DNA from: Promethearchaeota archaeon
GTDB lineage: Archaea > Asgardarchaeota > Lokiarchaeia > Sigyniarchaeales > SOKP01
Direction of reading: 5' to 3'
Assembly: GCA_048940445.1 (NCBI GenBank)
Contig: JBHLON010000002.1
Span: 96,001 to 160,000, forward strand
Length of the DNA stretch: 64,000 nt
Part shown: positions 10,595-63,826 of the stretch, piece by piece
Layout of the letters: the number at the start of each line of letters is the position of its first letter
How positions within the stretch are numbered: the first letter of the stretch is position 1
The notes under the pieces: model-generated
What the model saw: the letters and a program-made list of their open reading frames with translations, nothing else
Databases searched by the model: none
What the model was told of the DNA's origin: nothing
Position numbers and translations under genes: made by a program

Positions 10595-11458
10595 ATGAAT
10601 AAAATTAGAAAGGTTAAATTAACTTTAAAAAGTCGTCCTACGATAGAAGGAGCTGGAGTAAGATTAAAGAGAGCGTTTGGATATGCTGATTCTTCATTAG
10701 ATCCATTTTTACTTTTAGATGATTTTCATTCGGATGATCCTAATGATTATATAGCAGGATTTCCGTGGCATCCACATCGTGGAATAGAAACCATAACGTA
10801 TATGCTTCATGGAAAAATTGAACATGGTGATAGTTTAGGCAATGGAGGAGTCATTGAAGAAGGAGATGTTCAGTGGATGACTGCTGGCTCTGGGATCATA
10901 CATCAAGAAATGCCAAAGCGAGATAACAGTAAGCCTCTTTTATGGGGGTTTCAACTTTGGGCTAACTTACCTGCGGCGCATAAGATGAGAGACCCTCGTT
11001 ATAGAGATATTAAAAAAAATCAAATTCCAGAAGTTAAAGCAGGGAACGGTGTAAAAGTTAAAATAATATGTGGAGAGATCAATGGAATAAAAGGACCCGT
11101 ACAGGACATCGTAACAGAACCAGAATACTTAGATGTACAAGTAGAAGCTCATTCTGAATTTAAACACTCAACTAAAAAGGAAAATAATGTAATTGCTTAT
11201 GTAATACAAGGTGAAGCTTATTTTGATGAAAGTAATGATAAACTGGTCGGAGCTGAAGGTTTAGTATTATATCAAGAGGGAGACGAAATCTTGATTAGAA
11301 CTGTAAATAACGGTGTTCGATTCCTCTTGATTTCTGGAAAACCATTGAGGGAACCGGTGGCTTGGCGAGGTCCTATTGTAATGAACACAGATGAAGAGTT
11401 AAAAATTGCATTTCGAGAATTTGAAAATGGAACATTTATTAAGCACCACACAAAATAA
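10595..11458 (+). CDS. Pirin family protein
   Basis: DPFLLLDDF, GFPWHPHRGIETITY, WMTAGSGIIHQE, GPIVMNT. Confidence 0.95.
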   Translation: MNKIRKVKLTLKSRPTIEGAGVRLKRAFGYADSSLDPFLLLDDFHSDDPNDYIAGFPWHPHRGIETITYMLHGKIEHGDSLGNGGVIEEGDVQWMTAGSGIIHQEMPKRDNSKPLLWGFQLWANLPAAHKMRDPRYRDIKKNQIPEVKAGNGVKVKIICGEINGIKGPVQDIVTEPEYLDVQVEAHSEFKHSTKKENNVIAYVIQGEAYFDESNDKLVGAEGLVLYQEGDEILIRTVNNGVRFLLISGKPLREPVAWRGPIVMNTDEELKIAFREFENGTFIKHHTK

Positions 11459-11469
11459 TGAATAGTTAA

Positions 11470-12135
11470 TTAGATATGATACGATGCAAAAAATATTAGA
11501 AATATACCAATAATTATTTCGAATAGAATCGCCGATAGCCCTCCTATTGATGATAGAATTTCATACACTTTGGAGGTAGGTATGATAATTTTTATCCCAT
11601 TAACAATACCAATGAAAATGCTAGTAATAATTCCCAACCATCCAATTGATGACCCTAAAATGATTGAAAATGCGAGTGTACCAATTGACCATGCAATCAT
11701 TGCATATGAAAATCTATTGCTTTTTCTTTGCAGAATGATATGATATGAATCAATCAATGGACTTTTTTCTGTACTACTGGTAACTGAGTATCTTTTTGCT
11801 ATATTGAGAAGCTTCAAGTAATCTTTTTCACTATAAACTTGGATTGAGCCTTCTGTTATTCGAAAGACAATCAATACGATTCCAAGTATTATATTATACG
11901 GACTAAAAACAATAAATAGCAATATAGCAAGTGTAATAACACTAAAGTGCTCTATAAGCGCTAAAACAACGCTCATTAGAAATTTTCTTGGACTATTGTT
12001 AAAGTCTAGCAGTTTAGCATCAGATTTAAAATGTTTTGACGTTGGTTCTAAAATATAGCCAAATGCAGCCATTACAACTTGCAAAGCCAAGATAAATAGA
12101 AAGAAAAAACCAGATAGCCTTGTCAATATAATCAT
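11470..12135 (-). CDS. Multi-TM membrane protein (DUF4386-like)
   Basis: About 6 TM segments; RLSG.F N-terminus, FRITE, GWLGI, FEIIIG. Confidence 0.6.
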   Translation of the reverse strand: MIILTRLSGFFFLFILALQVVMAAFGYILEPTSKHFKSDAKLLDFNNSPRKFLMSVVLALIEHFSVITLAILLFIVFSPYNIILGIVLIVFRITEGSIQVYSEKDYLKLLNIAKRYSVTSSTEKSPLIDSYHIILQRKSNRFSYAMIAWSIGTLAFSIILGSSIGWLGIITSIFIGIVNGIKIIIPTSKVYEILSSIGGLSAILFEIIIGIFLIFFASYHI

Positions 12136-12511
12136 AAAGAATCCACCGATTTATTCTACCCTAATCTATGAACCTCGAGGCAGCCATGTCTTTCAGAATC
12201 TATTGCTTTCATCATATAGATAATAGTCTATTTAAACTTATAAATGTAAATATTAATTCCATTTAAACTATGGCCGAAATGTTCATATGTACACCTTAGC
12301 CGAAGAATTACTATAACTATTGACTATATTGAACTTAACTGGTTTTTTCTTTTCAATAATGCCCACAATCACCCTTTATTCTAAGGATAACACCAGATTA
12401 TTTTCTAAAAGTTTCTAATTCCACTTTATAATCTAAAGCAACCTTGAAGATAATTAATTTTTTATACTGAAGATAAGATAATACTATTACTCAGGAAATT
12501 AAATAATCATT

Positions 12512-12691
12512 ATGTCTACTTGTAATTATTGCGGAAAAGAAATCGGTGACTTGCCTTTTAAATGTAAGAATTGCGGAAATCTATTTTGTTCCAAACATAG
12601 ATTACTTGAAAATCATGAATGTAAATTTGATTTTGAAGGTTCTATATTTAATGAAAATCAAAAACTAAAAGCTAAAAAACAAAGCAATTAA
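12512..12691 (+). CDS. AN1-type zinc finger microprotein (59 aa; possibly truncated)
   Basis: MSTCNYCGKEIGDLPFKCKNCGNLFCSKHRLLENHEC matches AN1 C-x2-C...FxCxxCxxxFCxxHRxxExHxC. Confidence 0.8.
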   Translation: MSTCNYCGKEIGDLPFKCKNCGNLFCSKHRLLENHECKFDFEGSIFNENQKLKAKKQSN

Positions 12692-12926
12692 ATTGGTTTT
12701 TATTGATTTTTAGGAAATTTTTTAAAGAGCTTGTTCCATGGGTCATCTATTTATGATTATTACTAATGTGGAGTTTAAAAAAAACACACTTAGAGAATAT
12801 ATAAGTAGAGATTTCATTAAAAGTAGTCAATTTAATATTAATACTTAAATTTAATATCATCTTACTTCTTTACAATTAATTTAATTAGCAATTGATATTC
12901 TATCATCTTTTTTAATAAATAGTGAG

Positions 12927-13202
12927 GTGTGTTATACGATGAAAAAATCAATTTTATCAATTATAACTCTAGTTTTTGCTTTAGTAACAGCTGTTTTTAT
13001 AGGTTTATGGTTGTATATAATTATATTTCCATTTTTTGATATGGCACAGTTGGCAGCAAATCTAGGATATTCGATACTTGATGCTGTTCCTGTCCCAGTT
13101 ATCCTTGCATATATCTTTTTAAATATCTATTTCATTTTAATGGCGGCATTTGGTATTATTACTTTGATATTAGCATTAATTACAAAAATCGTTAATCGTT
13201 AA
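12927..13202 (+). CDS. Small 2-TM membrane protein
   Basis: MKK plus hydrophobic helices; likely start 12939 after GAGGTG. Confidence 0.6.
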   Translation: MCYTMKKSILSIITLVFALVTAVFIGLWLYIIIFPFFDMAQLAANLGYSILDAVPVPVILAYIFLNIYFILMAAFGIITLILALITKIVNR

Positions 13203-13285
13203 GGGTATAATAGAAAGCTAAATTTTTTAATAATCTTTTTTTCTTCCACTTTTGCCACTTTTATCCTAAAAAAAAAGAAACAACC

Positions 13286-13413
13286 CTACTTAATTTTAAA
13301 CCGAAAAAGCCCTTAAATGGAGCAGTTGCTTGGAGGAGTCTTATCGTTATGAATAGAGATCAAGAGATAAGGATCGTATTTCGTGAATTTATTAATAATT
13401 TTATTAAGTACCA
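13286..13413 (+). pseudogene. Orphan 3' fragment of a pirin gene
   Basis: Translates KPLNGAVAWRSLIVMNRDQEIRIVFREFINNFIK vs intact KPLREPVAWRGPIVMNTDEELKIAFREFENGTFIK. Confidence 0.85.
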
Positions 13414-13513
13414 ATTATTAGATATAATCTAAAAAAATATTAGGTGCAATTCTTTTTAATTCGTAATAAATATTAATTATAAAATCAAAATAAATAGAGA
13501 AAAGTAATCGGAA

Positions 13514-13792
13514 ATGTCTGAAGAGCCTCAGTTCCCTGATATACCGGACTTTAAAGAACGTTCCGTTCTTTAACTGGACATTGGGGAAATAGATAGAAAA
13601 GATAGGTTCATTCAAAAGAAGACAACAGTTATTAAATGTAGAGAGTGCAAGGCAAGGATGGAACGCCCTTTCAAAGCAGGAGACTATACCTTTAAAACCC
13701 TAACTGATGAAGAATGTGAGAAATGTCGCAGTAAAATGTCAACTATAGAAGAGATCTATGCTGAATGGGTAGATCCTAAAAAGATCAAATAA
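13514..13792 (+). pseudogene. Archaeal double-CxxC zinc-ribbon protein with in-frame TAA at 13571-13573
   Basis: MSEEPQFPDIPDFKERSVL*LDIGEIDRKDRFIQKKTTVIKCRECKARMERPFKAGDYTFKTLTDEECEKCRSKMSTIEEIYAEWVDPKKIK. Confidence 0.7.
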
Positions 13793-13885
13793 AATTTGTT
13801 CTATAACAACATAATTAAATCTTTTTTATAGATTATATTTTTAATAATCTTCAATTATTTTAATTTCTATAGAAAGTGAATCTTT

Positions 13886-14992
13886 TTGACAGAGAAAGAA
13901 AATAGATATATAATCAATAATTTTCATGCAAAATCTTTGGAAGATAATCCGTTAAAAAGTCCTGTTGATCGAGACATTAATATATATCTGCCCCCTGATT
14001 ATTATAAAGACATTGATGTCAAATATCCTGTGATTTATTTTCTGCATGGATATTCTGGGAATAATTGGAGTTGGACAACCAACTTTAAAAATGCAAAAGA
14101 TATTGGATTTGATTTTAATGCTGCACCACCCAATATTTTAAACAAATTAGATATTGATCGCTTATTAACTTTTGAAAAGTTAGATGAATTAATTCAAAAA
14201 GGTGAATTAAAGCCATTTATATATGTTCAACCGGATGGAAGCTTAGAAATTCCAAACAAATTCAAACGCAGAGATTTGAGAGGAAAAATAATGACAAAGG
14301 GAAGTTTTTATGTTAATTCGCCCTCTGCTGGAAATTATATGAACTATATCATAAATGATGTAATAGATTTTGTGGATTCACATTACCGAAGCATTCCAGA
14401 TAAGAATCGTAGAGCTTTAATGGGGGGTTCTATGGGTGGTTATGGGGCACTATATTTAGCTCTCCATCATCCTGATAAATTTATTGCGGTATCATTATTA
14501 AGTCCAGGAAATGTTGGCAATCTTGATAGAATAAACTGGGAATTAAGAATTCCAATATATACAGAGCTTTTTGGTGAAAAAACGTCTGCTCAGATAGGTG
14601 ATTTCGCTTGGAAAGATATCATGGATACATATGACTTGATTTTTTCGAATGTTAATAGATTAATCCCTTCTATTAAGAGAGACGAAAATGGAAATATTAT
14701 AGGGTATAATAAAGAAGCATTTAATAATTGGCAACGAAATAATCTTCTTAATTTAATAGAAAAATATCCCGAATCTCTAAAGAAAGTTCATTTACAATTA
14801 AATTGTGAAAGAACTGATGAGTTTGGTCTTGCTGATGCGGCTATTCAGCTTCATGAGAAATTAATAGAAAAGAAAATTGAGCATGATTATGAGTTGTATT
14901 CTGACCCAAAAGCAGCTCTTACACCTCATATTTTAGGAATAGGATATCATATATTACCAGGAATTAAATTTTGCTTACAATTTATAGAATAG
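13886..14992 (+). CDS. Alpha/beta hydrolase, putative esterase
   Basis: IYLPPDY, YPVIYFLHG, GGSMGGYGA nucleophile elbow. Confidence 0.9.
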   Translation: MTEKENRYIINNFHAKSLEDNPLKSPVDRDINIYLPPDYYKDIDVKYPVIYFLHGYSGNNWSWTTNFKNAKDIGFDFNAAPPNILNKLDIDRLLTFEKLDELIQKGELKPFIYVQPDGSLEIPNKFKRRDLRGKIMTKGSFYVNSPSAGNYMNYIINDVIDFVDSHYRSIPDKNRRALMGGSMGGYGALYLALHHPDKFIAVSLLSPGNVGNLDRINWELRIPIYTELFGEKTSAQIGDFAWKDIMDTYDLIFSNVNRLIPSIKRDENGNIIGYNKEAFNNWQRNNLLNLIEKYPESLKKVHLQLNCERTDEFGLADAAIQLHEKLIEKKIEHDYELYSDPKAALTPHILGIGYHILPGIKFCLQFIE

Positions 14993-15017
14993 TTTAAATC
15001 ATAATAGGTTTTAAGAG

Positions 15018-15971
15018 ATGATACATGTAGAATCCAGGCTGCTTAGTCCAAAAGATTGTGACACTCTTGGCTATCTCACTGTATCTTCAAGAAAAGGAAC
15101 TATACTGGAATCAGACAGAAGTGCTGAGGAGATAGCAGCCAATATTGAAACTTTAGCTAAAAATCAAGATTATGAAATATTGATAGCATTGGATGAAAAT
15201 CAAGACATCATAGGATGGATTTATTATTATGTCGCTATTCCTCCGATGGCTTTTATTAACGGTTATTTACCAATTGCAGATCAAACTCGTGAATCTGGGA
15301 ATATTATTTTAGCATTAATTAACGCATCAAAGAGAAATATTATTGAACGAGAATATACTCGGTTAGAGATTAATAATGATTTTCCTACAGATGCGCATAA
15401 ACAAATGTCAGATAGACTTCTCAATTGGTATAAAAAATGTGACTTTCAGTTTGCAGCTGAAGAAGCTCATATGAAAACGGACCTCAGAAAAATTAGAATA
15501 CCAGAAAACAGTCTACCAAATGGTTATAGCCTCCAAAGTTTTTCTGAGATTTCTTATGATCAGCTAGAAATTGCTGGATTTCAAGCGCTTCAGAATAGTA
15601 ATGATGAATTATTTATTTCTATGAGTCAATCAGAACAAAAAGTTTCTCTTAAGTATTTCTTCGACAAGTCACGCAATTTTATTAAAGAAGCATCACTTGT
15701 TCTAGAGAAGGATGGTAGGGTAGTTGGTTTTGTAATCACTCGCGTGGATGATGATATAGCAGAGATCGGCCCATTTGACCTAATTCCAGAGGTTAGAGGG
15801 CACGGTCTTGGTAATTATTTGCTTGGATGTGCTTTAAAGAACATAAAAGATGCAGGATTTGTTAGTGTATCTCTTGATGTGTCTAAATCTAATATTCCCG
15901 CGAAAATGCTTTACAATCGATATGGCTTTGAAGAACTATACTCCAAACAATTTTATTTTTGGTCACCCTAA
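15018..15971 (+). CDS. Tandem-domain GNAT acetyltransferase
   Basis: PEVRGHGLG, NIPAKMLYNRYGF. Confidence 0.85.
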   Translation: MIHVESRLLSPKDCDTLGYLTVSSRKGTILESDRSAEEIAANIETLAKNQDYEILIALDENQDIIGWIYYYVAIPPMAFINGYLPIADQTRESGNIILALINASKRNIIEREYTRLEINNDFPTDAHKQMSDRLLNWYKKCDFQFAAEEAHMKTDLRKIRIPENSLPNGYSLQSFSEISYDQLEIAGFQALQNSNDELFISMSQSEQKVSLKYFFDKSRNFIKEASLVLEKDGRVVGFVITRVDDDIAEIGPFDLIPEVRGHGLGNYLLGCALKNIKDAGFVSVSLDVSKSNIPAKMLYNRYGFEELYSKQFYFWSP

Positions 15972-16039
15972 ATTGAGGCATCCAAATGGATGAGAATCTG
16001 ATAGTTAACTAAAAATATTAACTATTAATTTTATTATCT

Positions 16040-16561
16040 ATGCTGATTGGAAAAAATGTAAATTTGAGCATCATTGAAAAAACTGATTTACCTCTCCTTA
16101 AGGAATGGATAAATGAATGTAATATTGATGGAGAATTTGAGCCAATAAATCAATTAAGTTTAACAGATATAGAAAAAGAGTTTGAGGGTAATAAGGAAGG
16201 CCAATGGTTTTTTATAGAGAAGAAAGATAAAACTAAAATTGGTTATATTGCCCACTTTCTTTCGAAATCATGTAGAGCAATTGGTTATGCCATATTATTA
16301 AATGAAAGAGCTAAGGGTTATGGATCTGAAGCCGTCCAAATGATGGTAGATTATTTATTTCTATCAAAAAATATAGTAAGGATTCAAGCTGAAACACATC
16401 CCGAAAATTTAGCATCACAGAGAGTCTTAGTTAAATCTGGTTTTACAAAGGAAGGAATAGTCAGGAAAAGCTTCTTTAGCAGAGGAGTATGGCGTGACAC
16501 GGCTTTATACAGTCTCTTAAAGGAAGAATGGAAAGAACCCAAAATTATTACAAAACTATAG
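16040..16561 (+). CDS. RimJ/RimL-type GNAT acetyltransferase
   Basis: ERAKGYGSEA, ENLASQRVLVKSGFTKEG. Confidence 0.9.
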   Translation: MLIGKNVNLSIIEKTDLPLLKEWINECNIDGEFEPINQLSLTDIEKEFEGNKEGQWFFIEKKDKTKIGYIAHFLSKSCRAIGYAILLNERAKGYGSEAVQMMVDYLFLSKNIVRIQAETHPENLASQRVLVKSGFTKEGIVRKSFFSRGVWRDTALYSLLKEEWKEPKIITKL

Positions 16562-16582
16562 ATTTCGGATATGAGTTCCTAT

Positions 16583-16834
16583 TCAATCAATCCCAAGTAA
16601 TTTAATAATCAAATTTGTCATAGAATAGGGATCGAGGCTTTTATCCATCACTAAGTTAATATATTTCTCAATTTCGGAATTAGACGATAGTAACTTTTCT
16701 ACTTTTTTCGTTAATTTATGTTTTAAAATCTGTATTGTCTCTTTCTTTATTCTATCTTTAACATAACTTTCGATTAATCCCGTATCCTTTAAGAAAATTT
16801 TCTATTGGTTTGCTACTTCGAGAAATTCCTTGAA
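16583..16834 (-). pseudogene. Orphan 3' fragment of meaB (84 codons, one internal TAG)
   Basis: Translates FKEFLEVANQ*KIFLKDTGLIESYVKDRIKKETIQILKHKLTKKVEKLLSSNSEIEKYINLVMDKSLDPYSMTNLIIKLLGID*, matching the C-terminus of 19153..20145. Confidence 0.93.
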
Positions 16835-16929
16835 ATTTTATATACTATCCGAAATTAAGTTTTGTTTGCGGTTTATAAATTAGATAAAATCAAAAGAGCT
16901 CCTATAGATTAGATGATTTATGCACTCTT

Positions 16930-16993
16930 TTTATAGAAAAAGAATTTTATTGTTCGCAAAAGCTTCTTTAGTGGAAGAATATGGAGAGATAAA
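16930..16993 (+). pseudogene. Short orphan 3' fragment of the RimJ/RimL GNAT
   Basis: 16949-16993 = IVRKSFFSGRIWRDK vs intact IVRKSFFSRGVWRDT. Confidence 0.75.
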
Positions 16994-16995
16994 GG

Positions 16996-17037
16996 AAAGT
17001 GTCTACAGAGTTTACAAAAGTGTCTACAAAATTTTCA
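16996..17037. repeat. Tandem 21-bp direct repeat with core AAAGTGTCTACA
   Basis: aaagtgtctacagagtttaca / aaagtgtctacaaaattttca, followed by a TATA-like tattaaata. Confidence 0.6.
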
Positions 17038-17185
17038 AAAGTATTAAATATCAAAATATGATCCATAAGCTTTGATCATCTTCGATCCAATTCAATGTTT
17101 TATTTAGCGAAATTCAAAATTTTCTATGTTTAGAAGATTGAATTAGATAATTTTTTGTTTAGATGATCAATTTAAGAAAAAAAAG

Positions 17186-18058
17186 ATGTTGAAAATGAAT
17201 AGTTCTAAGACAAGAAAATTAGCTCTAGTAGTAATTGTAGTGACTTTAGTGTTCTGCTTCATACCAGTAGTTCAAGGAACAAAAACTTCAAACAAAAGTA
17301 TAACTATTTTACCAATAGAAGATTGGCTTATGGGTAATCCATTAGGTGCTGGTCCCGGGTATCTTGATCCGGATTCTATGTTGTCTCAACGATGTTTAGG
17401 TACGGTAGCAGATGCTGAATCATATGAAGGATATGTTGTTGAAAAGATACTGAATGATGGGTCACGCCATTACACAGTGAATATAGAAGTAAAAGGTGTA
17501 CCAATGGCTGTACTCGATTGGATTGCCGGAGAATGGATATTTGTAGGAATGATGGATTTTAGATATACAGCTAAATTTATCCTTGAAGAAGAAATACCTG
17601 GAGGAGAAATTTTGGATTGGGATTATGGAGATTTTGTTCTTGATGAAAATGGAAATCCGGCACCACTTATAGTACCTATTATGCCTACTGTTCCTGCAGG
17701 TAATAGGAATATGGATGGGTGGTACCTTCCATCATGGTGGATTCTTTACTTTTATCAGTACGAAATTGGGGGTTACTTTGAATGGATGGAATTTAAATCT
17801 CAAGCTTCCGGCAACTTTATAGAGCCAGGATGGTACCCCTCTCCAACTGGACCTTCTCCGGTTCTACTTGAAGAAGGAAATGTCATGGTCCATCAAATAG
17901 CAATTTACGGTTATAATCTTCCGTTGAATAATCCCAATGTGAATCAATATACCTCATGGTCTGTTCCAGAGGGTGTGCTTTACGATGGTGGACCTCTAGT
18001 ACAATCTCCTTTGTTAATGCCTGAAATGTGGCCTGTAGAGTACGTTAAATTCTATTGA
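17186..18058 (+). CDS. Secreted acidic hypothetical protein
   Basis: N-terminal signal peptide (RK plus hydrophobic core, VQG cleavage); Pro/Trp/Gly rich. Confidence 0.75.
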   Translation: MLKMNSSKTRKLALVVIVVTLVFCFIPVVQGTKTSNKSITILPIEDWLMGNPLGAGPGYLDPDSMLSQRCLGTVADAESYEGYVVEKILNDGSRHYTVNIEVKGVPMAVLDWIAGEWIFVGMMDFRYTAKFILEEEIPGGEILDWDYGDFVLDENGNPAPLIVPIMPTVPAGNRNMDGWYLPSWWILYFYQYEIGGYFEWMEFKSQASGNFIEPGWYPSPTGPSPVLLEEGNVMVHQIAIYGYNLPLNNPNVNQYTSWSVPEGVLYDGGPLVQSPLLMPEMWPVEYVKFY

Positions 18059-18340
18059 TTTATCTAAATGTAATCAAAATACGATTAAACAAAAATAATA
18101 ACTTTCAATATAGTATATAGAATGCGGAGGAAAAAGTTTAGATAATTGGCTTCTCGAATGACCACACCTAAACTAATATTCCCCCAATCTATATATCTTT
18201 TTTTTTTTAATAAATATTGGGTCATAAGCGAAATTTTTTAGAAATAATTATGAAAAATCATGCATATAACTCTTTTTTATCTAAAATTAGAATTTTTGTA
18301 ATAGAAGATTTTTTGGGGTAATTAAATCAGTTTAAGAAAC

Positions 18341-19003
18341 TTATTCTTGAGTATTATATGAAACAAGCCAAAAATATTTAAAAAGTTTTATCTTAAAATT
18401 TTTAATTTTACTACCAAGAGTTTCGAGAATTTCTTGTTGAGTAGGAAAATTTTTCAACACTTCATATTCTCGACCATCTTCTAATTTCCTTATCTGATAA
18501 GTATTTCCATCATTATCAATTCGAATTATTGGCGTAGAGCTTTTCTTCACACGGCGATTATCAACAAAAACAACAAGAGCATCAGATTGAAGTTTTGACT
18601 GAAATAAGGTAAGAAATCCTTTTAATTTGGATTTTAATACATGAGACCACCAAAAACCAGCAAAACCTGCAGAAAAATTATTCTGAATTTTGTTTAATGA
18701 ATAAACATCATCTTGAACAAAGATTACCTTATCTGAAGGAATTTCGCGGCTTTTGGCAATTTGAAGAACTTTATTATTTATATCAACAGCAGTGATAAAT
18801 TTTGAGACAGATGCAATTGTTTTAGTCCAATAACCAGTTCCACATGCAACCTCAAGTACTATATGACCACTCAGCAGATTTTTTAGCAATTTATGAAGCT
18901 TTTTAATATCCTTTTGGCGTTCAGGTCTCAAATACGTCTTATCATATTCATATGCTCTATCTGCATAATACTGCTCGATATCTTTATCAATTTTTCTTGA
19001 CAT
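18341..19003 (-). CDS. Class I SAM-dependent methyltransferase
   Basis: VLEVACGTGYWT, AVDIN, GFWWSHV. Confidence 0.9.
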   Translation of the reverse strand: MSRKIDKDIEQYYADRAYEYDKTYLRPERQKDIKKLHKLLKNLLSGHIVLEVACGTGYWTKTIASVSKFITAVDINNKVLQIAKSREIPSDKVIFVQDDVYSLNKIQNNFSAGFAGFWWSHVLKSKLKGFLTLFQSKLQSDALVVFVDNRRVKKSSTPIIRIDNDGNTYQIRKLEDGREYEVLKNFPTQQEILETLGSKIKNFKIKLFKYFWLVSYNTQE

Positions 19004-19152
19004 TTATATGCAATTTTAGGTTAACTATTATTATATACTATTACCTAATCATATTTTATATTGAAATGAAAAATTTTCTAATTTTAGGGTATAACCTATT
19101 TTTTTTTAATAAATTTTTAGAAATAATCTCCCTAAAGGAAAAAAAGTTTGAA

Positions 19153-20145
19153 TTAATCGATTCCAAGTAGTTTTATTATAAGATTTGCCATAGAATAAGG
19201 ATCTAAGCTTTTGTCCATAACTAAATTAATATAGTTATTAATTTCAGAATTAGAAGAAAGCAACTTTTCTACTTTTTTTGTTAATTTATGTTTTAAAATC
19301 TGCAGTGTCTCATTCTTTATCCTATTTTTGGCATAACTATCAATTATCCCAGTATCTTTTAAGAAAGCTTTGTGTAGGTTTACCATTTCAAGAAATTGGT
19401 TAAATCCCTCCTCTGTTTTTGAATTCACTTTCACAATCTTTGGAGTCCACTGGCGGATTTTGGTATATTCTTTGGATAAATCTTGATCATCAAATTTAAA
19501 ACTAGATTCTAATTCTAACATTTGTGAAATCTCAGCTACTTTTTGGTCTGCTCCTGGAAGATCCATTTTATTAACTACAAAAATATCTGTGATTTCCATT
19601 ATTCCTGCTTTTATAGCTTGAATATCATCTCCTACTTCTGGCTGAAGTAACACAGCTACAGTTTGAGCAGACTTAAATATGTCTACTTCAGATTGACCCA
19701 CTCCTACAGTCTCCACAATAATAATATCTGATCCATAAACATCTAAGATTTTAATAACATCTTCAGTGGCTCTCGCCAATCCTCCTAATTGGCCTCTATT
19801 TGCCATGCTTCTAATGAACACATTATTCAAATTAAAATGTTCTTTCATTCTGATGCGATCCCCTAGTATTGCTCCTCCTGTAAGAGGAGATGTTGGATCG
19901 ACACAAATTATCCCGATTTTATTTCCTTGTTCTACAAGAATTTTAGTTAGAGTTGAAATAAAAGTAGATTTTCCGCTGCCTGGTGCTCCAGTTACCCCAA
20001 GAATATAACTATTTCCTGTGTATTTATATATTGAATTAATAATCTGCTCAGCAGCAATGATGTTATTCTCAACGATCGTAATTAAACGAGCTGCAGCTCG
20101 GGGGTCTTTGTTTATAAGCCTTTCGATTAGGTTTGAATAATCCAT
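19153..20145 (-). CDS. meaB: MeaB/ArgK GTPase chaperone for B12 mutase
   Basis: GAPGSGKST, VDPTSP..GGAILGDRIRM, ETVGVGQSE, NKMD. Confidence 0.95.
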   Translation of the reverse strand: MDYSNLIERLINKDPRAAARLITIVENNIIAAEQIINSIYKYTGNSYILGVTGAPGSGKSTFISTLTKILVEQGNKIGIICVDPTSPLTGGAILGDRIRMKEHFNLNNVFIRSMANRGQLGGLARATEDVIKILDVYGSDIIIVETVGVGQSEVDIFKSAQTVAVLLQPEVGDDIQAIKAGIMEITDIFVVNKMDLPGADQKVAEISQMLELESSFKFDDQDLSKEYTKIRQWTPKIVKVNSKTEEGFNQFLEMVNLHKAFLKDTGIIDSYAKNRIKNETLQILKHKLTKKVEKLLSSNSEINNYINLVMDKSLDPYSMANLIIKLLGID

Positions 20146-20152
20146 CTATGGT

Positions 20153-20554
20153 TTATCTCTTAAGGTTATTCTTTACAAATTCTACAATTGTTTTTAATTC
20201 AGTACCAGGTCCATGAAAACCCTTCAGTCCATGCTTTTCTAAGAAAGGTTTATCCTCATCGGGAATAATCCCTCCTACAGCAACAAGAACATCATCTATT
20301 CCTTTTTCTTTTAATTTTTCCATTATAACTGGACATAGAGCATTATGAGCTCCTGATAACATACTTAACATAACTGCATCAGGATCCTCCTGTACAACTG
20401 TATTTACAATATCATCAGGTGTTTGATGTAATCCAGTATAAATTACTTCCATTCCTGCATCTCGTAATGCGCGAGCTAAGACTTTAGCCCCCCGATCATG
20501 TCCATCCAATCCTGGCTTACAAACAAGAACCTTTATCTTTCTTTTCTCAGTCAT
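20153..20554 (-). CDS. Acyl-CoA mutase small cobalamin-binding subunit
   Basis: KPGLDGHDRG (DxHxxG), SMLSGAH, GGIIP; start at MTEKRK. Confidence 0.95.
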   Translation of the reverse strand: MTEKRKIKVLVCKPGLDGHDRGAKVLARALRDAGMEVIYTGLHQTPDDIVNTVVQEDPDAVMLSMLSGAHNALCPVIMEKLKEKGIDDVLVAVGGIIPDEDKPFLEKHGLKGFHGPGTELKTIVEFVKNNLKR

Positions 20555-20568
20555 TTTAAAATCTCTCC

Positions 20569-22203
20569 TCAAAAAATTGAGTCTTCTTGATATATTCCAA
20601 ATACTTCTTTTAAAGTTTCAATTATTTCACCAATTGAAACAGATTCTCTTACAGCATCAATAATATATGGCATTAAATTTTCAGTACCTTGTGCTGCTTT
20701 TTTAAGACTTTCTAATTTTTCTTGAACCTTCTCATTGTCTCTTTCTTGCTTTAATTTCTTTAACTTTCTTATTTGCTCTTTAGCTACCTGTTCATCAATC
20801 TTTAATAGGGGTGTAGAACAAGGTTCTCTGAAAGTCACATCATTAACTCCTACGATAATTCTTTCCTTCTTTTCCACTTCTTTTTGATATTTGTATGACG
20901 CATTTGCAATTTCTTTTTGGAAGAAATTTGCCTTAATAGCAGGAATTACTCCTCCTAACTCATCAATCCTCTGGAAATAATTTTCAGCTTCCTCTTCCAT
21001 TTTATTAGTAAGCCATTCAACATAATAACTCCCCGCAAGTGGATCCACGGTATCAGCTACTCCCGATTCGTGAGCGATAATTTGCTGTGTTCGCAATGCA
21101 ATTTTAGCTGCTTTTTCAGTTGGTAGACATAATGCTTCATCAAAAGAATTGGTATGTAACGACTGAGTACCTCCAAAAACTGCTGCTAAGGCTTGAAGTG
21201 TAACTCTAGCTATATTATTTTCAGGCTCTTGTGCTGTAAGTGAAACACCTGCAGTTTGAGTATGGAATCTGAGTCTCATTGATTCTGGATTTTTAGCATT
21301 ATATTTATTTTTCAAATGTTTAGCCCAGATCCTTCTAGCAGCTCTATATTTTGCTACTTCTTCAAAAAAATTATTATGAGAATTAAAGAAAAAGGATAAT
21401 CTTGGAGCAAAATCATCAACATTCAATCCTCTCTCCATTGCGGCTTCAACATAAGCGAAACCATCTGCCAATGTAAATGCTAATTCTTGAACAGCAGTTG
21501 AACCTGCTTCTCGAATATGGTAACCACTAATAGATATAGTATACCATTGTGGTACATACTTAGTGCAATATTCTATCGTGTCTATAATGAGTCTCATGGA
21601 CGGCTCAGGTGGAAAAATCCATGATTTTTGAGCAATATATTCTTTTAATATATCATTTTGAATTGTTCCTCTCAACTGATCCGGTTTATGCCCTTGTCTT
21701 TCAGCAGTTACTATATATAATGCTAATAGAATCGCAGCAGGGCCATTGATTGTCATAGAAGTGCTAATCTTGGAAAGATCTATTCCATCAAATAACATTT
21801 CCATATCCTTTATGGTATCAATACTTACACCTTCCTTCCCTATCTCTCCAAGCGCTTTTTCATCTGTTGCTTCAATACCATATATGGTATGTAAACTGAA
21901 AGCAACGCTTAATCCTGTTTGACCATGTTCTAATAAAAATTTATAGCGCTTATTTGTTTGTTCAGCATTCCCAAATCCCGCAAACTGTCTCATGGTCCAA
22001 AGGCGTCCACGATACATATTTTTATATACTCCACGGGTGAAAGGATATTTTCCGGGCTCTCCTAAATCAAGAACATAATTTAAATCTTTTATATCTTCAG
22101 GAGTATATAATCTCTTAATTTCGATGTCAGAAAGATTTCGGAACTTTTCTTTTCGTTCTCCTTTGGTCGGTTTTAATGTTTTTTGTTCATCTATTTCTGT
22201 CAT
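20569..22203 (-). CDS. B12-dependent acyl-CoA mutase large subunit (isobutyryl-CoA mutase-like)
   Basis: PFTRGVY..MYRGRLWTMRQFAGF, QNDILKEYIAQ, ISGYHIREAG, QSLHTNSFDEA. Confidence 0.93.
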   Translation of the reverse strand: MTEIDEQKTLKPTKGERKEKFRNLSDIEIKRLYTPEDIKDLNYVLDLGEPGKYPFTRGVYKNMYRGRLWTMRQFAGFGNAEQTNKRYKFLLEHGQTGLSVAFSLHTIYGIEATDEKALGEIGKEGVSIDTIKDMEMLFDGIDLSKISTSMTINGPAAILLALYIVTAERQGHKPDQLRGTIQNDILKEYIAQKSWIFPPEPSMRLIIDTIEYCTKYVPQWYTISISGYHIREAGSTAVQELAFTLADGFAYVEAAMERGLNVDDFAPRLSFFFNSHNNFFEEVAKYRAARRIWAKHLKNKYNAKNPESMRLRFHTQTAGVSLTAQEPENNIARVTLQALAAVFGGTQSLHTNSFDEALCLPTEKAAKIALRTQQIIAHESGVADTVDPLAGSYYVEWLTNKMEEEAENYFQRIDELGGVIPAIKANFFQKEIANASYKYQKEVEKKERIIVGVNDVTFREPCSTPLLKIDEQVAKEQIRKLKKLKQERDNEKVQEKLESLKKAAQGTENLMPYIIDAVRESVSIGEIIETLKEVFGIYQEDSIF

Positions 22204-25785: not shown

Positions 25786-25787
25786 TT

Positions 25788-27169: not shown

Positions 27170-28030
27170 TTGAATAGTGTAATAATTGTGAGCAAAACGA
27201 TAAATTTGACTACAAAGATTTTATTAAAAGATTTAAAGTTTCCAGAAGCATTAAGATGGTATGATAACAAATTATGGTTTTCTGATATGGAAACTCGTAA
27301 AATAACTTCTGTTGATATGAAAGGAACAGCAAAGTCCATAATTGAAATACCTAATCGACCATCTGGCTTAGGATGGCTACCTGATGGAAGCCTTCTAGTG
27401 GTTTCTATGGAAGACCGTAAATTACTTCAGCTTGAATCAGGGATTATTAAAGAATTTATGGATTTAAGTGGATTTGCAACTTATCCTTTAAACGATATGG
27501 TGGTTAATGAACAAGGATATGCATATATTGGACATTTTGGGTTTGATTATATTAACAACCAACCTTTTGTACCTGCTACGATTATAATGGTTACTTCTGA
27601 AAGAAAGACTAAGATTGTGGCTAAAAATATGTCATTTCCAAACGGTATGGTTATTACTCCTGATGGTAAAACACTTATTGTGGCAGAGACTCTTTCAGCT
27701 CGATTAACAGCCTTTGACATCAGAAATGACGGAACTCTTAATAATCGGCGATTATGGGCGAATCTAAAATCAATACCCCCCGATGGAATCTGTCTTGATG
27801 AGAAAGGAGCTGTTTGGGTTGCTGCACCAGGGAAACATAAAGCAGTACGTGTTCTTGAAGGAGGAGAGATAACTCATGCCGTAAATGTAAAGAATGATGC
27901 CTATGCTTGCATGCTAGGAGGACCAAATCTGACAACTTTATTCATTGCAACATCAAGAAGTCATCAGATAAGAGAAAAAGGTCAGATCGAATATGTAGAA
28001 GTTGAGGTGCCAAAGGCAGGTTTTCCATAA
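27170..28030 (+). CDS. SMP-30/gluconolactonase family, paralog 1
   Basis: FPEALRW, LNDMVV, FPNGM, PDGICLD. Confidence 0.92.
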   Translation: MNSVIIVSKTINLTTKILLKDLKFPEALRWYDNKLWFSDMETRKITSVDMKGTAKSIIEIPNRPSGLGWLPDGSLLVVSMEDRKLLQLESGIIKEFMDLSGFATYPLNDMVVNEQGYAYIGHFGFDYINNQPFVPATIIMVTSERKTKIVAKNMSFPNGMVITPDGKTLIVAETLSARLTAFDIRNDGTLNNRRLWANLKSIPPDGICLDEKGAVWVAAPGKHKAVRVLEGGEITHAVNVKNDAYACMLGGPNLTTLFIATSRSHQIREKGQIEYVEVEVPKAGFP

Positions 28031-28238
28031 AATCAGTTTTGCTTAAATGCTTATAATAAATGTTAAGTTTTTAAATCTCTATTTTAATCGGCTTTTTCTT
28101 TTTCAGTTATTCCTTTTTTCTCTCAGGCTTATCTTTTTTAAGTTGTGTTCATAACTTTATGAATCTTTTTATTGAAAATTAATAAATTTACATTTTATAG
28201 TTGAAAACTATTTATAATTTTTATATAAAATATCAATT

Positions 28239-29075
28239 ATGAGTAAAACTAAAAGGTTAACTACAAAAATCCTACTTACTGATTTAAAATTTCCAGAAGG
28301 ACCAAGATGGCACGATGGCAAACTTTGGTTCTCTGATATGGAAGATTGCAAAGTAATAATTGTTGATATGAAAGGAAATAAACAAATAGCATTTGACGTG
28401 CCAAATAAACCATCTGGTTTAGGATGGTTGCCTGATGGAAGACTATTGGTGGCCTCTATGAAAGATCGTAAACTTTTCCGACAAAATTTAAAAGGACTAG
28501 AAGAAGTAGCTGATTTGAGCAAGTTAGCAACTTTTGATTTGAATGACATGGTCGTAGATAAGCAAGGACGTGCTTATATTGGAAATTTTGGTTTTGATTA
28601 TCTTAACCACCAACCTTATGTACCTGCTAATATTGTCATGGTATCTCCTGATGAAACTGTTAAGGTAGTGGCAGAAGATATGGCCTTCCCAAATGGCATG
28701 ATTATCACCCCTGATGATAAGACTCTTATTGTAGCAGAAACTTTTTCAGCTAGACTAACAGCTTTTAATATCAGAAATGATGGAACTCTTAAGAATAGGC
28801 AAATATGGGCAAATCTGAAATCTATTCCACCTGATGGAATTTGTCTTGATGAAGAAGGAGGAATTTGGGTTGCTGCTCCAGGACGGCATAGGACTGTAAG
28901 AGTTCTCGAAGGTGGAGAAATAACACATGTTGTAAAGGTGCAGAATGATGCTTATGCCTGTATGTTAGGTGGACCAGATCTTACAACATTATTTATAGCA
29001 ACTGCAGCTTATACCAGAGATAAAGGGCAGATTGAATATGTAGAAGTCAACGTACCAAAAGCTGGGCTTCCGTAA
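28239..29075 (+). CDS. SMP-30/gluconolactonase family, paralog 2
   Basis: FPEGPRW, LNDMVVD, FPNGM, PDGICLD; close tandem paralog. Confidence 0.92.
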   Translation: MSKTKRLTTKILLTDLKFPEGPRWHDGKLWFSDMEDCKVIIVDMKGNKQIAFDVPNKPSGLGWLPDGRLLVASMKDRKLFRQNLKGLEEVADLSKLATFDLNDMVVDKQGRAYIGNFGFDYLNHQPYVPANIVMVSPDETVKVVAEDMAFPNGMIITPDDKTLIVAETFSARLTAFNIRNDGTLKNRQIWANLKSIPPDGICLDEEGGIWVAAPGRHRTVRVLEGGEITHVVKVQNDAYACMLGGPDLTTLFIATAAYTRDKGQIEYVEVNVPKAGLP

Positions 29076-40929: not shown

Positions 40930-41057
40930 TTATTTAAACCTACTAAATTATATATGCCTTTATGGATAATTACACTAAAATAATTTATATATTTTTAGTA
41001 GACCAATTTTTTAATTCATCCTTTTTGAAAATATACAATTGAAAATTAGAAAAAAAA

Positions 41058-52566: not shown

Positions 52567-54510
52567 ATGGAAAAATCTGATAATCAAAGAATTGGATACT
52601 ATGCTTGTCAGTGAGGTATAAATATTCGTGGAAAAATTGATTGCAATAAGTTAGTGGAGTACGCTAAAGATTTAGATGGAGTTATCGTTGCTAAACAGCA
52701 CAGTTTTCTTTGCACTGAGAGTGGTCAAAATGAAATTATTGGGGATATAAAAGAAAAAAAATTAAATCGCATTGTAGTTTCTGCTTGAACTCCACGTACT
52801 CATGAACCAGTTTATAGAGGATCGATTGCAAAGACAGATTTAAATCCTTATTACTTTCAGATGGTAAATGTGCGTGAACATTGCTCTTGGTGTACAGAAA
52901 GTAATGAAGAGGCATTAGATAAAGCTAAAATCTTGGTAAAGAGTGGTATCGAACGAGGAAAACTACTTGAAGTTGTACCCATTAGAACTGTGCCTGTAGA
53001 AAAAGCCACCCTGGTGGTGGGTGGAGGAATAGCAGGGATGAATGCGGCTCTGGATCTCGCCAATCAAGGAATTAAAGTGTATTTGGTTGATAAAAACACA
53101 ACTATAGGAGGACGAATGGCGCAATTAGACAGAACATTTCCAACTGATGACTGTGCGATATGAATCTGTGGACCTAAGATGCTTGAAGTAAATCGAAATG
53201 AAAATATTGAGATTCTTAGCTATTCAGAAGTGAAAAAAGTAGAAGGTTATGTTGGTAATTATGAAATAACTGTTGAAAAGAAACCTCGTTATATAAATCC
53301 AGAAACTTGTAACGGATGTGGGGCTTGCGCAGAAGTATGTCCTACTTATACCAATAATTACTTTGATGAATATCTAGGAGCAAGAAAAACAATTGATATT
53401 GCTTTTGGTCAAGCAGTCCCTTTTTTATATGATATTCATAGGGAGACTTGTGTAGAATGCTTTAATTGTGTCGATGCATGTGAGCTTGATGCAATAGATT
53501 TCAGCCAAATACCAGAAGAAGTCAAATTTAAAGTTGGAACTATTATCATTGCTACTGGTTGGGATATATACGAGCCATTCGGAGAATATGGCTATGGAGA
53601 ATATGCTAATGTGATCACACAATCTCAACTCGAAAGAATGCTAGCTCCAAATGGACCATTAGAAGGACACGTCCAGAGAATTTCTGATAATAAAAAACTA
53701 AAGGAGATAGTTTTCATTCAATGCGTCGGAAGTCGAGAAACCGAAAGAACCTACTGTAGTGGTGTGTGTTGTATGCTTGCTTTAAAAAATGGAAAATTAC
53801 TTAAAGAAGAATTTCCTGATGCTAATATTACTATCTGCTATATTGATATAAGAACTAATGAGAAAGGTTTTGAAGAATATTACCAACGAGCTAAGGATTC
53901 TGATATTCGAATGATTCGTGGTAAAGTTGGTGAGATTACAGAAGATCCTGAGACTAAAAATGTTAAAATACGCGTTTATTCATCATTAACAGATGAAATA
54001 ATTAATATTGATGCAGATTTAGTAGTTTTATCAACAGCAGCATTACCATCTAAAGGGACTCAACAAATTGCCAAAGTTTTAAACTTAGATGTTGATAAGA
54101 ATGGATTTCTGACCGAATCCCACTTTGGTTTGATGCCACAAGAAACAAAAACTAAAGGTATTTTTATAGCTGGATTTGCCCAAGGACCTAAAGACATTGC
54201 TTATTCAGTTTCACAAGCTAGAGCTGCTGCAAGTAAGGTTGCAGAACTGACTTCTACCGGTGAAATTGACTTAGAGTTAATTATAGCCGAGGTAGATAAA
54301 GATTCCTGTATTTCTTGTAGAAGATGCGAAAAAGAATGTCCAAAAGGTGCAATAAAGATCGTAGAAGATGAGGGTGCAATTGTTGATGAAATAAATTGTG
54401 ATGGTTGCGGTATATGCGCTACTTGTTGCCCTACACGAGCAATTGATATACGATATTATAGGGATCATCAGTTATATGCTGAAATTGAAGCTCTATTAGG
54501 AGGTGTTTAA
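52567..54510 (+). CDS. hdrA: Heterodisulfide reductase subunit A, selenoprotein with 3 Sec (647 aa)
   Basis: One frame from ATG 52567 to TAA 54510 with TGA at 52612, 52786, 53161, each at a conserved Cys: ACQUG (ICHCG), SAUTPRTHE (ASCTPRTHE), DCAIUI (DCSLCI) in the paralog at 58958. Confidence 0.93.
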
Positions 54511-54514
54511 ATAA

Positions 54515-54958
54515 ATGGACACAAATTTCAATATATTGATGTTTGCTTGTTTAAAATGAGGTTATGGTGCTGCAGATTTAGCAGGAGTGTCTCGATTAAA
54601 ATATACACCGTCTGTTAAAATAGTAAAAATTAGGTGTACTGGACGGATTGATGTGAAACATATCTTATATGCGATTAAGTCTGGAGCTGATGGTGTAATG
54701 ATAGTTGGATGACGACCAGATGAATGTCAATTTAAGTACGGTAATTTTAAAGCACAAACTCATGTTGATTTGGCCAACAGAATATTAGAACGTAGAGGAT
54801 TTGGAAACCAGAGAATAAATCAATATTGGTTAAGTAGCGCTGAATCAGAAAAATTAGTTAAAAGTGTTGAAGATGCAGTAGAAAAGGTACAACGTATGGG
54901 TAAAAACCCAATCCACGATATAAAATCTAAAAAAAAGAAAGCAAGCATTGCCTCTTAG
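54515..54958 (+). CDS. mvhD: MvhD/VhuD [2Fe-2S] subunit, selenoprotein with 2 Sec (147 aa)
   Basis: MDTNFNILMFACLKUGYGAADLAG...RCTGRID...GADGVMIVGURPDEC; TGA at 54557 and 54710 align to CNWC and GCHIGDC cysteines of paralog 62055. Confidence 0.93.
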
Positions 54959-54998: not shown

Positions 54999-55063
54999 CC
55001 ATGTGTTGGTAAAGGAGGTATTAATAAAATTAAATTATTAAAAACTAAAATAATTGTAAAAGT

Positions 55064-57678: not shown

Positions 57679-57726
57679 AGAGGGAGAGATATAACAGAAT
57701 CAAAAAGAGACCTTGAAAGGAAAAAA

Positions 57727-58953: not shown

Positions 58954-58957
58954 CAGA

Positions 58958-62041: not shown

Positions 62042-62054
62042 AAGGAGAGCTTAT

Positions 62055-62498
62055 ATGCCAAGAACTACAACAAAAGTAAAACCTAAAGTTAAACAATTTA
62101 ACCCTGAAATCTTGGTATTTTGTTGTAATTGGTGCAGTTATGCAGGAGCAGATTTAGCTGGAGTCTCAAGGTTCCAATACCCTCCCAATATGAGGATTGT
62201 AAGGGTTATGTGTTCTGGAAGAGTGGATCCTGCATTTGTCATAAAAGCTTTAAAAGAAGGTGCTGATGGTGTCTTAATAACAGGATGTCATATTGGAGAT
62301 TGTCATTATATTTCAGGAAATGAGTATGCAAGAGAAAGATTCGGTAGGTTACATGAGGTTATTATAAAACAATTAGGGATAAATGAGAAAAGAGTTCGGT
62401 TGGAATGGGTCAGTGCTTCCGAAGGCAAAAGATTTGCTGAATTAATCACAGAATTTACAAACGAGATTAAAGAGTTAGGACCTCTTAAAGTCTTATAA
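62055..62498 (+). CDS. mvhD: MvhD [2Fe-2S] subunit, Cys type
   Basis: FCCNWCSYAGAD, VMCSGRV, GCHIGDCHY, WVSASEG. Confidence 0.95.
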   Translation: MPRTTTKVKPKVKQFNPEILVFCCNWCSYAGADLAGVSRFQYPPNMRIVRVMCSGRVDPAFVIKALKEGADGVLITGCHIGDCHYISGNEYARERFGRLHEVIIKQLGINEKRVRLEWVSASEGKRFAELITEFTNEIKELGPLKVL

Positions 62499-62534
62499 TT
62501 TGTTGAACTTTTCTTAATTACAAATAATTTTTCT

Positions 62535-62562
62535 GCTCTTTTTTGATAAAAAAGAGCTTTTT
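62535..62562 (+). terminator. Hairpin plus T tract after the hdr/mvh cluster
   Basis: GCTCTTTTTT-GAT-AAAAAAGAGC perfect 10-bp inverted repeat followed by TTTTT. Confidence 0.5.
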
Positions 62563-62667
62563 GAGGATAAAATTTAAATAATAACATATCTATTTTGTAC
62601 ACAACAAGGCTTTTTTGATAACAAAAAGAAAAATTTATAAATATTAGTTATACGAATTTAAAAAAGA

Positions 62668-63645
62668 GTGAGACTAATTTCTATAAATGAAAGGACTCAT
62701 GCAAAAAAAGTCTGCGATAAAAAGAATGAAAATAGAATTTTTAATGAAAATCTACAATTCATTTATAATGATATGCAAATTCAACAACTTGGATTAAGTA
62801 AAGAATTGCTTAGAGAGAAACAAATAGAATATGAAAAAGAAACAGGTAAAAATACTGTATGGGATGGAAGGATTACAAAGACCTTTTACAGATATTTAAC
62901 TGGTCAAAAAATATATGAACGCTCAAAAGAGAGAATTTCTTTGTATATTTCTCAACAAAAGAAGAGAAAATGGCATAAATTTATAGAAAACAATGAAAGT
63001 ATTGCCTCCCTTTCAAAATTAATCAGGATTGGTGTTGATTATTTCATAAAGAACCATTTAAATTCATTCTTATACGAATCTAATACGGATAATAAAGATT
63101 TATCAAATGTTCTGCTTGATGTGAAAGAATCTCTTACAACAATTAAAGGATTTTCACAATTAGTACTAAAAGAATATAAAGAAGAACTAGATAATCAAGT
63201 AGGAAATGCAATTGAAAAGATACATGAACAATGTCAGTTACTCGAATCAAAAATTTCAAATAGTAAAGCAAGAAAAAATATTGATGTTTTATTGATTGAA
63301 GATAATCCACAAACAGTCCATCTTTTCGAAGAAATTTTTAAAAACAAAGGCTATTCATATAAAACTGCTACAACAGGTCAAGGAGGATTAAATGAATTGA
63401 AAGTATCAATACCAAAAGTAGTATTATTAGATGTAATGTTGCCAGATATTAAAGGTTGGGAAGTATGTAAACAGATTAAAAAAAATAATAATTTAAAGCA
63501 CATACCTGTTTTCTATGAGACTGTTATACCTGAAGAGATAGTAAAAAGTAAAATTGAGGAAACGAGCGTAGATGGATACATCTCAAAACCTTTTGATATA
63601 TCGGTTATTATTGAACTATTAGACTCTATAATCTTATCTAATTAA
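62668..63645 (+). CDS. Response regulator: RHH-like, degenerate HisKA-like and receiver domains
   Basis: VLLIEDN, VVLLDVMLPD, ISKPF; SLTTIKGFSQL; KERISLYIS...LSKLIR. Confidence 0.8.
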   Translation: MRLISINERTHAKKVCDKKNENRIFNENLQFIYNDMQIQQLGLSKELLREKQIEYEKETGKNTVWDGRITKTFYRYLTGQKIYERSKERISLYISQQKKRKWHKFIENNESIASLSKLIRIGVDYFIKNHLNSFLYESNTDNKDLSNVLLDVKESLTTIKGFSQLVLKEYKEELDNQVGNAIEKIHEQCQLLESKISNSKARKNIDVLLIEDNPQTVHLFEEIFKNKGYSYKTATTGQGGLNELKVSIPKVVLLDVMLPDIKGWEVCKQIKKNNNLKHIPVFYETVIPEEIVKSKIEETSVDGYISKPFDISVIIELLDSIILSN

Positions 63646-63693
63646 AGGATGATTTCCTTTAAAAATGATATAAACTTACTTTTTTAGTCTTTT

Positions 63694-63826
63694 ATTAAGC
63701 AACTTGGTATTAATAAAAAAGAGTGAGGTTAGAATGGGTTTCTGCTTCAGAAGGAAAACGATTTGCTGATTTGATTACAGATTTTACAAATCAATTAAAG
63801 AATTAGGACCATTAAAAGTACTCTAA
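63694..63826 (+). pseudogene. Orphan 3' fragment of mvhD with two 1-nt deletions
   Basis: IKQLGINK/RVRLEWVSASEGKRFADLITDFTNQ/KELGPLKVL* vs intact IKQLGINEKRVRLEWVSASEGKRFAELITEFTNEIKELGPLKVL*. Confidence 0.93.

Follow-up and report, generated by a model that had tools for sequence, protein, structure and literature searches.

Likely replacement of gene ends by DNA of related species, with extra genes gained and the old ends stranded downstream, in a genome of the Lokiarchaeia

How does a gene come to be followed, a kilobase or two downstream, by a second and diverged copy of its own 3′ end? The question is raised by pirin, meaB and mvhD, three genes in a 64,000 nucleotide (nt) stretch of a Promethearchaeota archaeon genome (C134:96001-160000). 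This whole stretch is called the window, and its positions are used below unless a contig is named. The genome amounts to 3.64 Mb in 139 contigs with 30% GC and is 93% complete; its nearest named relatives are Promethearchaeota (Lokiarchaeia), with 88-90% MvhD identity. G codes designate comparison genomes (G000 is the studied genome), and C codes designate contigs of the studied genome. A preliminary description of the window had reported the three tail copies at a spacing of 1.2-2.3 kb, and tblastn recovered each of them downstream of its parent gene and on the same strand, with 1.85 kb (pirin), 2.3 kb (meaB) and 1.2 kb (mvhD) between gene and tail. Its further claim that the tails diverged under coding constraint is borne out by dN/dS values (Nei-Gojobori) of 0.13, 0.12 and 0.03, respectively, and the AGT versus TCT serine difference between the mvhD tails was also found. 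We consider it likely that the ends of about 20 ordinary genes were replaced by DNA of related species, which supplied a new end and one or a few extra genes (“cargo”) while the old end was left stranded downstream as an orphan.

Both donor-like and recipient-like genomes are available for the event at mvhD. The intact gene (62055-62498, + strand) is a hybrid: its 5′ part is native, its tail from 62359 onward is 99% like the distant congener G046, and the switch zone spans 62262-62358. The donor-derived tract (62359-63692, +) consists of the new mvhD tail, intergenic DNA, and a cargo gene (62668-63645, +) with its 3′ flank; the cargo encodes a 325-aa protein with a C-terminal response-regulator receiver. 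The orphan tail follows (63691-63826, +) and carries two 1-nt deletions. By tblastn, MvhD residues 112-147 match at 63717-63823 with 86% identity, and DNA homology starts at 63691. DNA 5′ of mvhD is 82-96% like G017 and 58-83% like G046, the segment 62359-62501 differs from G046 at two positions only, and the cargo is 86-97% like the G046 gene at the same place. Third-position identities follow the same division, with 382/513 to G017 versus 258/508 to G046 at the end of hdrA, 45/47 to G046 versus 22/44 to G017 in the live mvhD tail, and 284/326 to G046 in the cargo. The orphan has an identity of 0.92 to G017 and 0.78 to G046, and a clade uniting the live tail with the orphan was rejected by the approximately unbiased (AU) test (p = 4e-5). 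The cargo follows mvhD in G046, G053 and G055 without a second tail in any of them; G019, G018 and G045 have empty sites, with the same next gene directly after mvhD.

Because the upstream DNA is G017-like, the live tail and cargo G046-like and the orphan again G017-like, the left end of the event is read as a crossover inside mvhD (62262-62359) and the right end as a join with two shared bases. At the right join, the donor-type flank, as represented by G053, matches up to 63692 and the native orphan begins at 63691. The microhomology at 63685-63692 comprises 2 exact shared nt, or about 8 imperfect ones, as judged with proxy genomes in AT-rich DNA. These data show a donor origin for the live tail and cargo, a native origin for the orphan and a sharp non-homologous right join, and the event accordingly reads as one with a homologous and an illegitimate end. 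The two recipient genes that follow were kept, both of which a double crossover would have removed. Orphan mvhD tails also occur in two other Asgard metagenome-assembled genomes, with other cargo and other start points, and the differing start codons of the three mvhD orphans argue against a fixed insertion site. As a separate matter, the in-frame TGA codons of the hdrA and mvhD-like genes at 52576-54901 are conserved in relatives and specify selenocysteine; these genes are not pseudogenes.

The genome-wide frequency of such tails was determined by two approaches. A first census used intergenic DNA only, with possible undercounting of 5′ remnants; a recount that included fragments bearing open reading frames (ORFs) and an independent scan of peptide ends agree. 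The strict tblastn census (within 15 kb, contig ends excluded, short ORFs allowed) gave, on the same strand, 15 3′ pieces downstream, one 5′ piece upstream and one 5′ piece downstream. One further 3′ piece and two internal pieces were located upstream, and none was on the opposite strand. The independent scan used 30-residue gene ends, a score of 55 and a shuffled-pair null; it yielded 21 tails downstream and 6 upstream, 4 heads upstream and 7 downstream, and a single match on the opposite strand, while the null gave 0. The excess of downstream tails over upstream heads (21 versus 4) has a binomial p value of 9e-4. Equal numbers of 5′ remnants, which the preliminary description had named as the mark of plain decayed duplicates, are thus not seen, tails far outnumbering heads (15 to 1 and 21 to 4 by the two approaches). 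For 18 pairs pooled, pS was 0.47 and pN 0.14 (ratio 0.21), with mismatch frequencies of 0.16, 0.13 and 0.34 at the three codon positions.

Approximately 0.6% of genes carry a tail scar. The targets are unrelated (pirin, MeaB, MvhD, GlnA, a thiolase, a P-type ATPase, a radical SAM protein, beta-CASP, UPF0047 and others), and the cargo consists mainly of enzymes, regulators and surface proteins. Beyond the window, empty sites were found for UPF0047 (six genomes), C65, beta-CASP and a Zn-dehydrogenase; the sites on C96, C98 and C35 gave no clean donor-plus-empty pair among relatives. With empty sites at seven loci in all, and donor-like and recipient-like genomes for mvhD, the earlier suggestion that a related lineage provided new tail and cargo by an integrase-free route is supported. 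Genes downstream on the same strand start at least 90 nt after the orphan in 12 of 12 cases (genome-wide, 49% lie at a distance of at least 80 nt), which indicates that surviving events do not cut operons. Convergent downstream genes are not enriched (6/18 sites versus 41%). The excess of tails over heads probably reflects selection, in that the target gene stays under its own promoter and the next gene likewise keeps its own.

The census covered Asgard genomes, with 400-kb samples used for the comparison genomes. A one-contig genome of another family has three gene-cargo-tail sites in 306 genes (400 kb), so the pattern is not an assembly artefact; the G017 sample has one such site in 324 genes. 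No tails were found in 309 sampled genes of the closed genome G032, which shows that the pattern varies within the order. Other genomes have additional gene-cargo-tail sites at L099:4233-4349 (G057), L347:2605-2681 (G054), L359:3853-3950, where the cargo resembles a small antitoxin and PIN-like pair, and L375:5312-5390. At L089:12526-12645 (G017) and L033:5595-5708 (G012), the gene is reduced to a 3′ remnant and has no intact neighbouring copy; these are deletion-type scars of the same polarity. The one-contig genome bears directly on the suspicion that the sites are decayed tandem duplicates or chimeras of co-assembly, an explanation that the 139-contig assembly invites and that some pairs may fit, since the distant, low-identity pairs among small genes on C44, C42, C4 and C119 may be paralogue remnants. 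As a general account it is highly unlikely. The pooled dN/dS of 0.21 and the polarity oppose it, and the orphans carry stops and frameshifts. A chimera is further opposed by the different lineages of the live and orphan mvhD tails, and a join with two shared bases should not arise by k-mer overlap.

Could integrases have produced these sites? No integrase or transposase had been noted in the window, and a Pfam scan of 40 of the roughly 55 window ORFs found none. The single PF00589 (tyrosine recombinase) match in the genome is at C134:82786, 13 kb outside the window, and this lone recombinase lies at 0/18 sites. No serine recombinase appeared in the Pfam scans of the cargo, although that family was not searched for as such. 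Orphan starts share no identical att-like core, and the longest identical runs at the window loci (9-23 nt) are no more than expected by chance. Integrase islands that replaced the 3′ end of their target and later decayed to cargo only would leave exactly the layout of icd, e14 and icdC (PMC13626634). With 18 unrelated targets, no common core and donor genomes that carry the cargo without a second tail, such islands are the least credible of the explanations weighed here.

A different kind of element is present at the UPF0047 gene (C49:30336-31706; L115:4337-5707), where an intact, free-standing 456-aa LAGLIDADG ORF (PF14528, E = 5e-8, above the cut-off) lies between the gene and its displaced tail. 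The orphan, 57 nt in length, is native, with an identity to G017 of 0.90 versus 0.72 for the live tail, and live gene and orphan switch at the same codon. The same LAGLIDADG ORF (60% identity) and an orphan tail occur at the same gene in the distant G050 (L124), while six closer relatives are empty; in G010, another LAGLIDADG ORF lies between a gene and its tail. We regard the UPF0047 element as a candidate archaeal homing element of the type known as mobile ORFs (mORFs) in fungal mitochondria, with its endonuclease as the probable break-maker at this site. By extension, all sites might be remains of such homing elements whose nuclease gene later gave way to other cargo. The C49 site, its G050 counterpart, the G010 case and the native orphan would be accounted for, but the extension is very unlikely to hold. 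Apart from C49, scans of the cargo at the three window loci and of cargo from other sites revealed no nuclease family, and none is among the families of 31 variable genes (the best 25 of 45 shown). No relative of the C49 LAGLIDADG ORF lies within 1.5 kb after mvhD in 29 loci of the genus; the donor-type genomes carry the response regulator there, and orphan starts differ among the three mvhD events.

The tail scars were probably left by transfers within one genus, in which host recombination added genes of another species by way of one homologous and one illegitimate end. A donor fragment that carries the 3′ portion of a gene present in both species, together with the genes behind it, would pair with the recipient copy, and a crossover inside the gene would equip it with the donor tail and cargo. 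On its far side, the fragment would be rejoined to the recipient gene through a few bases common to both, such that the old tail and all downstream genes are retained. Pairing would presumably depend on RadA and the far end would be sealed by end-joining; microhomology end-joining is documented in archaea (PMC12281630, PMC7521656). The trigger may often be a double-strand break in the tail of the gene, as suggested by the coincidence, at one codon, of the starts of donor identity and orphan at mvhD and by the same-codon switch at UPF0047. Empty sites, polarity and coding-type divergence support this mechanism. More doubtful is a broader proposal in which break-induced one-sided copying, with neither integrases nor transformation genes involved, is a main way for Lokiarchaeia to gain additional genes. 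A gene would be broken on both strands within its last 20-150 codons, at some sites by free-standing LAGLIDADG endonucleases; the tail and downstream genes would then be copied from the DNA of another species, and the copy end-joined to the broken end. The process is known from fungal mitochondrial mORFs and from one-sided invasion in plants; here it would operate genome-wide on an archaeal chromosome.

Two routes had been put forward for these loci, homology-facilitated illegitimate recombination (HFIR) and single-crossover integration of a circle; the former fits better, while the latter in its plain form is disfavoured at mvhD, where the orphan is native from its first bases. In the circle model, the donor tail and cargo are circularised and enter by one crossover inside the tail, and the orphan should begin with donor-like and end with native sequence. 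Two sites have features of this kind. At C65, the pair shares an identical central tract of 97 nt (0/5000 shuffles), the 5′ part of the orphan has a 33-nt insert in common with the cargo-bearing G018, which the live gene lacks, as does the empty-site G017, and the 3′ flank of the orphan has an identity of 0.85 to G017. At beta-CASP, the identical run is 40 nt (p = 0.02). These tracts are explained equally well by later gene conversion between the repeats, so that either a crossover inside the duplicate or conversion may have made them. The other 16 of 18 pairs show no excess identical run, and the mvhD and UPF0047 orphans are native from the first informative bases, where the live gene is foreign. 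The coincident codon at mvhD would also fit repair of a break there better than entry of a circle. Circle integration is therefore judged improbable, whether for a minority of sites or for all of them. Note also that in G018 the 33-nt insert (L104:2950-2985; L185) lies inside the DFDLH motif of a deacetylase-like gene and contains a hairpin and a stop codon; the copy in the G000 orphan is decayed and G017 and G045 lack it, which makes it a candidate polymorphic mini-intron.

At the pirin locus, the intact gene (10595-11458, +; Pfam Pirin and Pirin_C) is followed by cargo consisting of a DUF4386 membrane protein gene (11470-12135, −), also found after pirin in G017, a 5′ remnant (12512-12688, +) of a gene for an AN1 zinc finger, of which G017 has the intact version (273 aa) at the corresponding place, and a 91-aa hydrophobic ORF with no Pfam match (12927-13202, +). 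The orphan tail (13307-13414, +; residues 249-285; tblastn 59% aa identity, E = 5e-8) precedes a small zinc-ribbon gene (13514-13792, +), the ancestral downstream neighbour of pirin, which lies directly after pirin in seven relatives (G018, G021, G053, G043, G042, G056 and G016). The 3′ flank of the orphan has identities of 0.60-0.69 to the post-pirin DNA of empty-site relatives, versus 0.34-0.45 for the flank of the live gene. G017 pirin has a similar array (DUF4386, AN1 finger), no orphan and 77% identity. Neither for pirin nor for meaB does the coding sequence clearly sort the live tail as foreign and the orphan as native, and the direction of the pirin event would be given by the flanks only. 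The interval between pirin and meaB (10595-20145; L031-L040, L093-L103) ranges from about 0.3 to more than 7 kb among 20 congeners, and appears to be a replacement hotspot between convergent conserved genes. A separate feature of the zinc-ribbon gene is a hairpin insert of about 30 nt with an in-frame stop (13551-13580), which is absent in G017, G018 and G021 and looks like the tRNA-type mini-introns of this genome; the G047 gene is split at the same position.

At the other end of this interval, the intact meaB gene (19153-20145, −) is the parent of an orphan tail (16583-16837, −; residues 247-330; tblastn 16837-16586, 80%) with one premature TAG. The preliminary description had overlooked a second orphan abutting this one, which derives from an intact esterase gene (13886-14992, +) and comprises its last ~16 codons (16834-16883, +), with homology continuing to about 16922. 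Between esterase and orphans are two GNAT genes (15018-15971 and 16040-16561, +), the second of which abuts the end of meaB in G019; this GNAT-meaB junction of an empty site is found at the meaB orphan. The GNAT tail claimed earlier exists at 16940-16990 (+) as a heavily decayed piece of the second GNAT gene with faint homology beyond (E = 0.017), although it is an internal piece (residues 137-153 of 173) and not a tail. The meaB and esterase orphans are joined back-to-back, cut end to cut end. The stretch that runs from the end of the esterase gene to that of meaB is present at this locus in two diverged tandem copies, and there is a single illegitimate join. Such a tandem is also expected from circle integration. 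Most of the second GNAT pair would later have been lost. The last ~180 nt of live meaB and 54 nt past its stop are 90-98% like G017, while the orphan is at the level of the 5′ part of the gene, so that meaB is weakly favoured as the gene that was replaced; the mirror reading, in which the esterase was replaced, stands.

The meaB cargo is a gene (17186-18058, +) for a 290-aa protein with a hydrophobic N-terminus and no Pfam match, a homologue of which is likewise flanked in G054 by the end of a gene on one side and a 77-nt copy of this end on the other. After it lies a 105-nt non-coding element (18114-18218, no strand assigned), 96% identical to G017. Copies, frequently located behind a homologue of the 290-aa gene, occur on C78, C101 and C110 and in many congeners, and an Rfam search of 9000-21000 gave nothing significant for the element or elsewhere in that interval. 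A methyltransferase unit (18203-19115, −; gene at 18341-19003) has imperfect terminal inverted repeats with the core GGTTATA, a duplicated AT-rich 13-mer and no transposase, and is 91-94% identical at unrelated loci in the distant congeners G019, G013, G002, G024 and G044. It forms a distinct mobile layer, probably added later, and is probably a non-autonomous transposon with a passenger gene.

Several observations weigh against host recombination with one illegitimate end as the general explanation. A donor-like genome is known for mvhD only, and the cargo of neither pirin nor meaB has a contiguous close donor among 41 congeners. In the meaB tail tree, a grouping of the live tail with the orphan is not rejected, and the tree does not decide the direction of the event. 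The identical internal runs of C65 and beta-CASP are not predicted. Cargo mostly ends in intergenic DNA, no more than about 250 nt from the orphan, whereas random donor ends should cut genes more often. No match to the transformation proteins ComEC (PF03772) or DprA (PF02481), by which donor DNA might have entered, was obtained in this 93%-complete genome, although archaeal uptake systems were not searched.

In HFIR, the illegitimate end is joined at a microhomology of a few nt. HFIR is described for Acinetobacter, Streptococcus pneumoniae and Pseudomonas stutzeri (as summarised in PMC5361080) and, on that summary, shares with the present sites one homologous anchor, another end without homology, the lack of a dedicated recombinase and the addition of foreign genes. 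It differs in being described there as rare and in naturally transformable bacteria, as against about 0.6% of genes here and no ComEC or DprA found; moreover, upstream identity to the donor is here no more than about 70-75%, and the recipient lost hardly any DNA at mvhD. In fungal mitochondria, mORFs are known from Allomyces atp6 and Glomus atp6, atp9, cox2 and nad3 (PMC3630166). They likewise have a foreign live C-terminus and a native, displaced C-terminus about 1 kb downstream, as at mvhD and UPF0047. The UPF0047 site has the full mORF anatomy, including a LAGLIDADG ORF, whose product would be expected to cut the empty allele but not the new tail, while at most sites, including the three in the window, the genes carried are metabolic or regulatory and a nuclease is lacking. 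C-terminal displacement in rhs genes and in effector-immunity arrays of type VI secretion systems, for which circles or HFIR have been proposed (PMC2935791, PMC5361080), similarly involves a laterally acquired end that pushes the old end downstream. In those systems, a single toxin family has its tail as variable payload and forms arrays; here, the tail is conserved and the payload is the genes behind it, the many unrelated targets usually have one orphan each, and no polymorphic toxin tip with an immunity gene is present. Finally, prophage e14 in Escherichia coli icd leaves icdC (PMC13626634), which gives the same order of intact gene, insert and pseudogene copy of the 3′ end, with the target restored by a replacement end as at mvhD; e14 depends on an integrase and on a fixed att site, and both are absent from the sites described here. 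The sites work like HFIR and, in one case, like an mORF; they are neither integrase elements nor rhs systems.

The gene-cargo-tail architecture is therefore not special to Asgard archaea, and the layout itself was already known from icd/icdC, from rhs and type VI displacement, from mORFs and from HFIR. New here are the genome-wide count with its polarity, the donor and recipient of one event at base level, and a member bearing an endonuclease. Integrase, transposon and viral elements of Asgard archaea are described in PMC8813620 and PMC11529989, in which keywords led to no passage on a tail scar. Patchy accessory genes abound in Asgard genomes, and the tails are a countable and datable record of integrase-free gene gain. 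Homologous recombination still operates across species boundaries at which adjacent genes share only about 70-75% identity, and a core gene can combine parts from two species, with consequences for any tree inferred from it. With the UPF0047 element, homing by a free-standing endonuclease in archaea could be tested directly by biochemical means.

The window also contains full-length tandem paralogue pairs, which are not tail events, at 27170-29075 (gluconolactonase-like, 69% aa identity), 1016-2035 (42%) and 40099-41882 (30%). A Gtr1/RagA-like small GTPase, of a eukaryotic-signature family, is encoded at 44215-45123.

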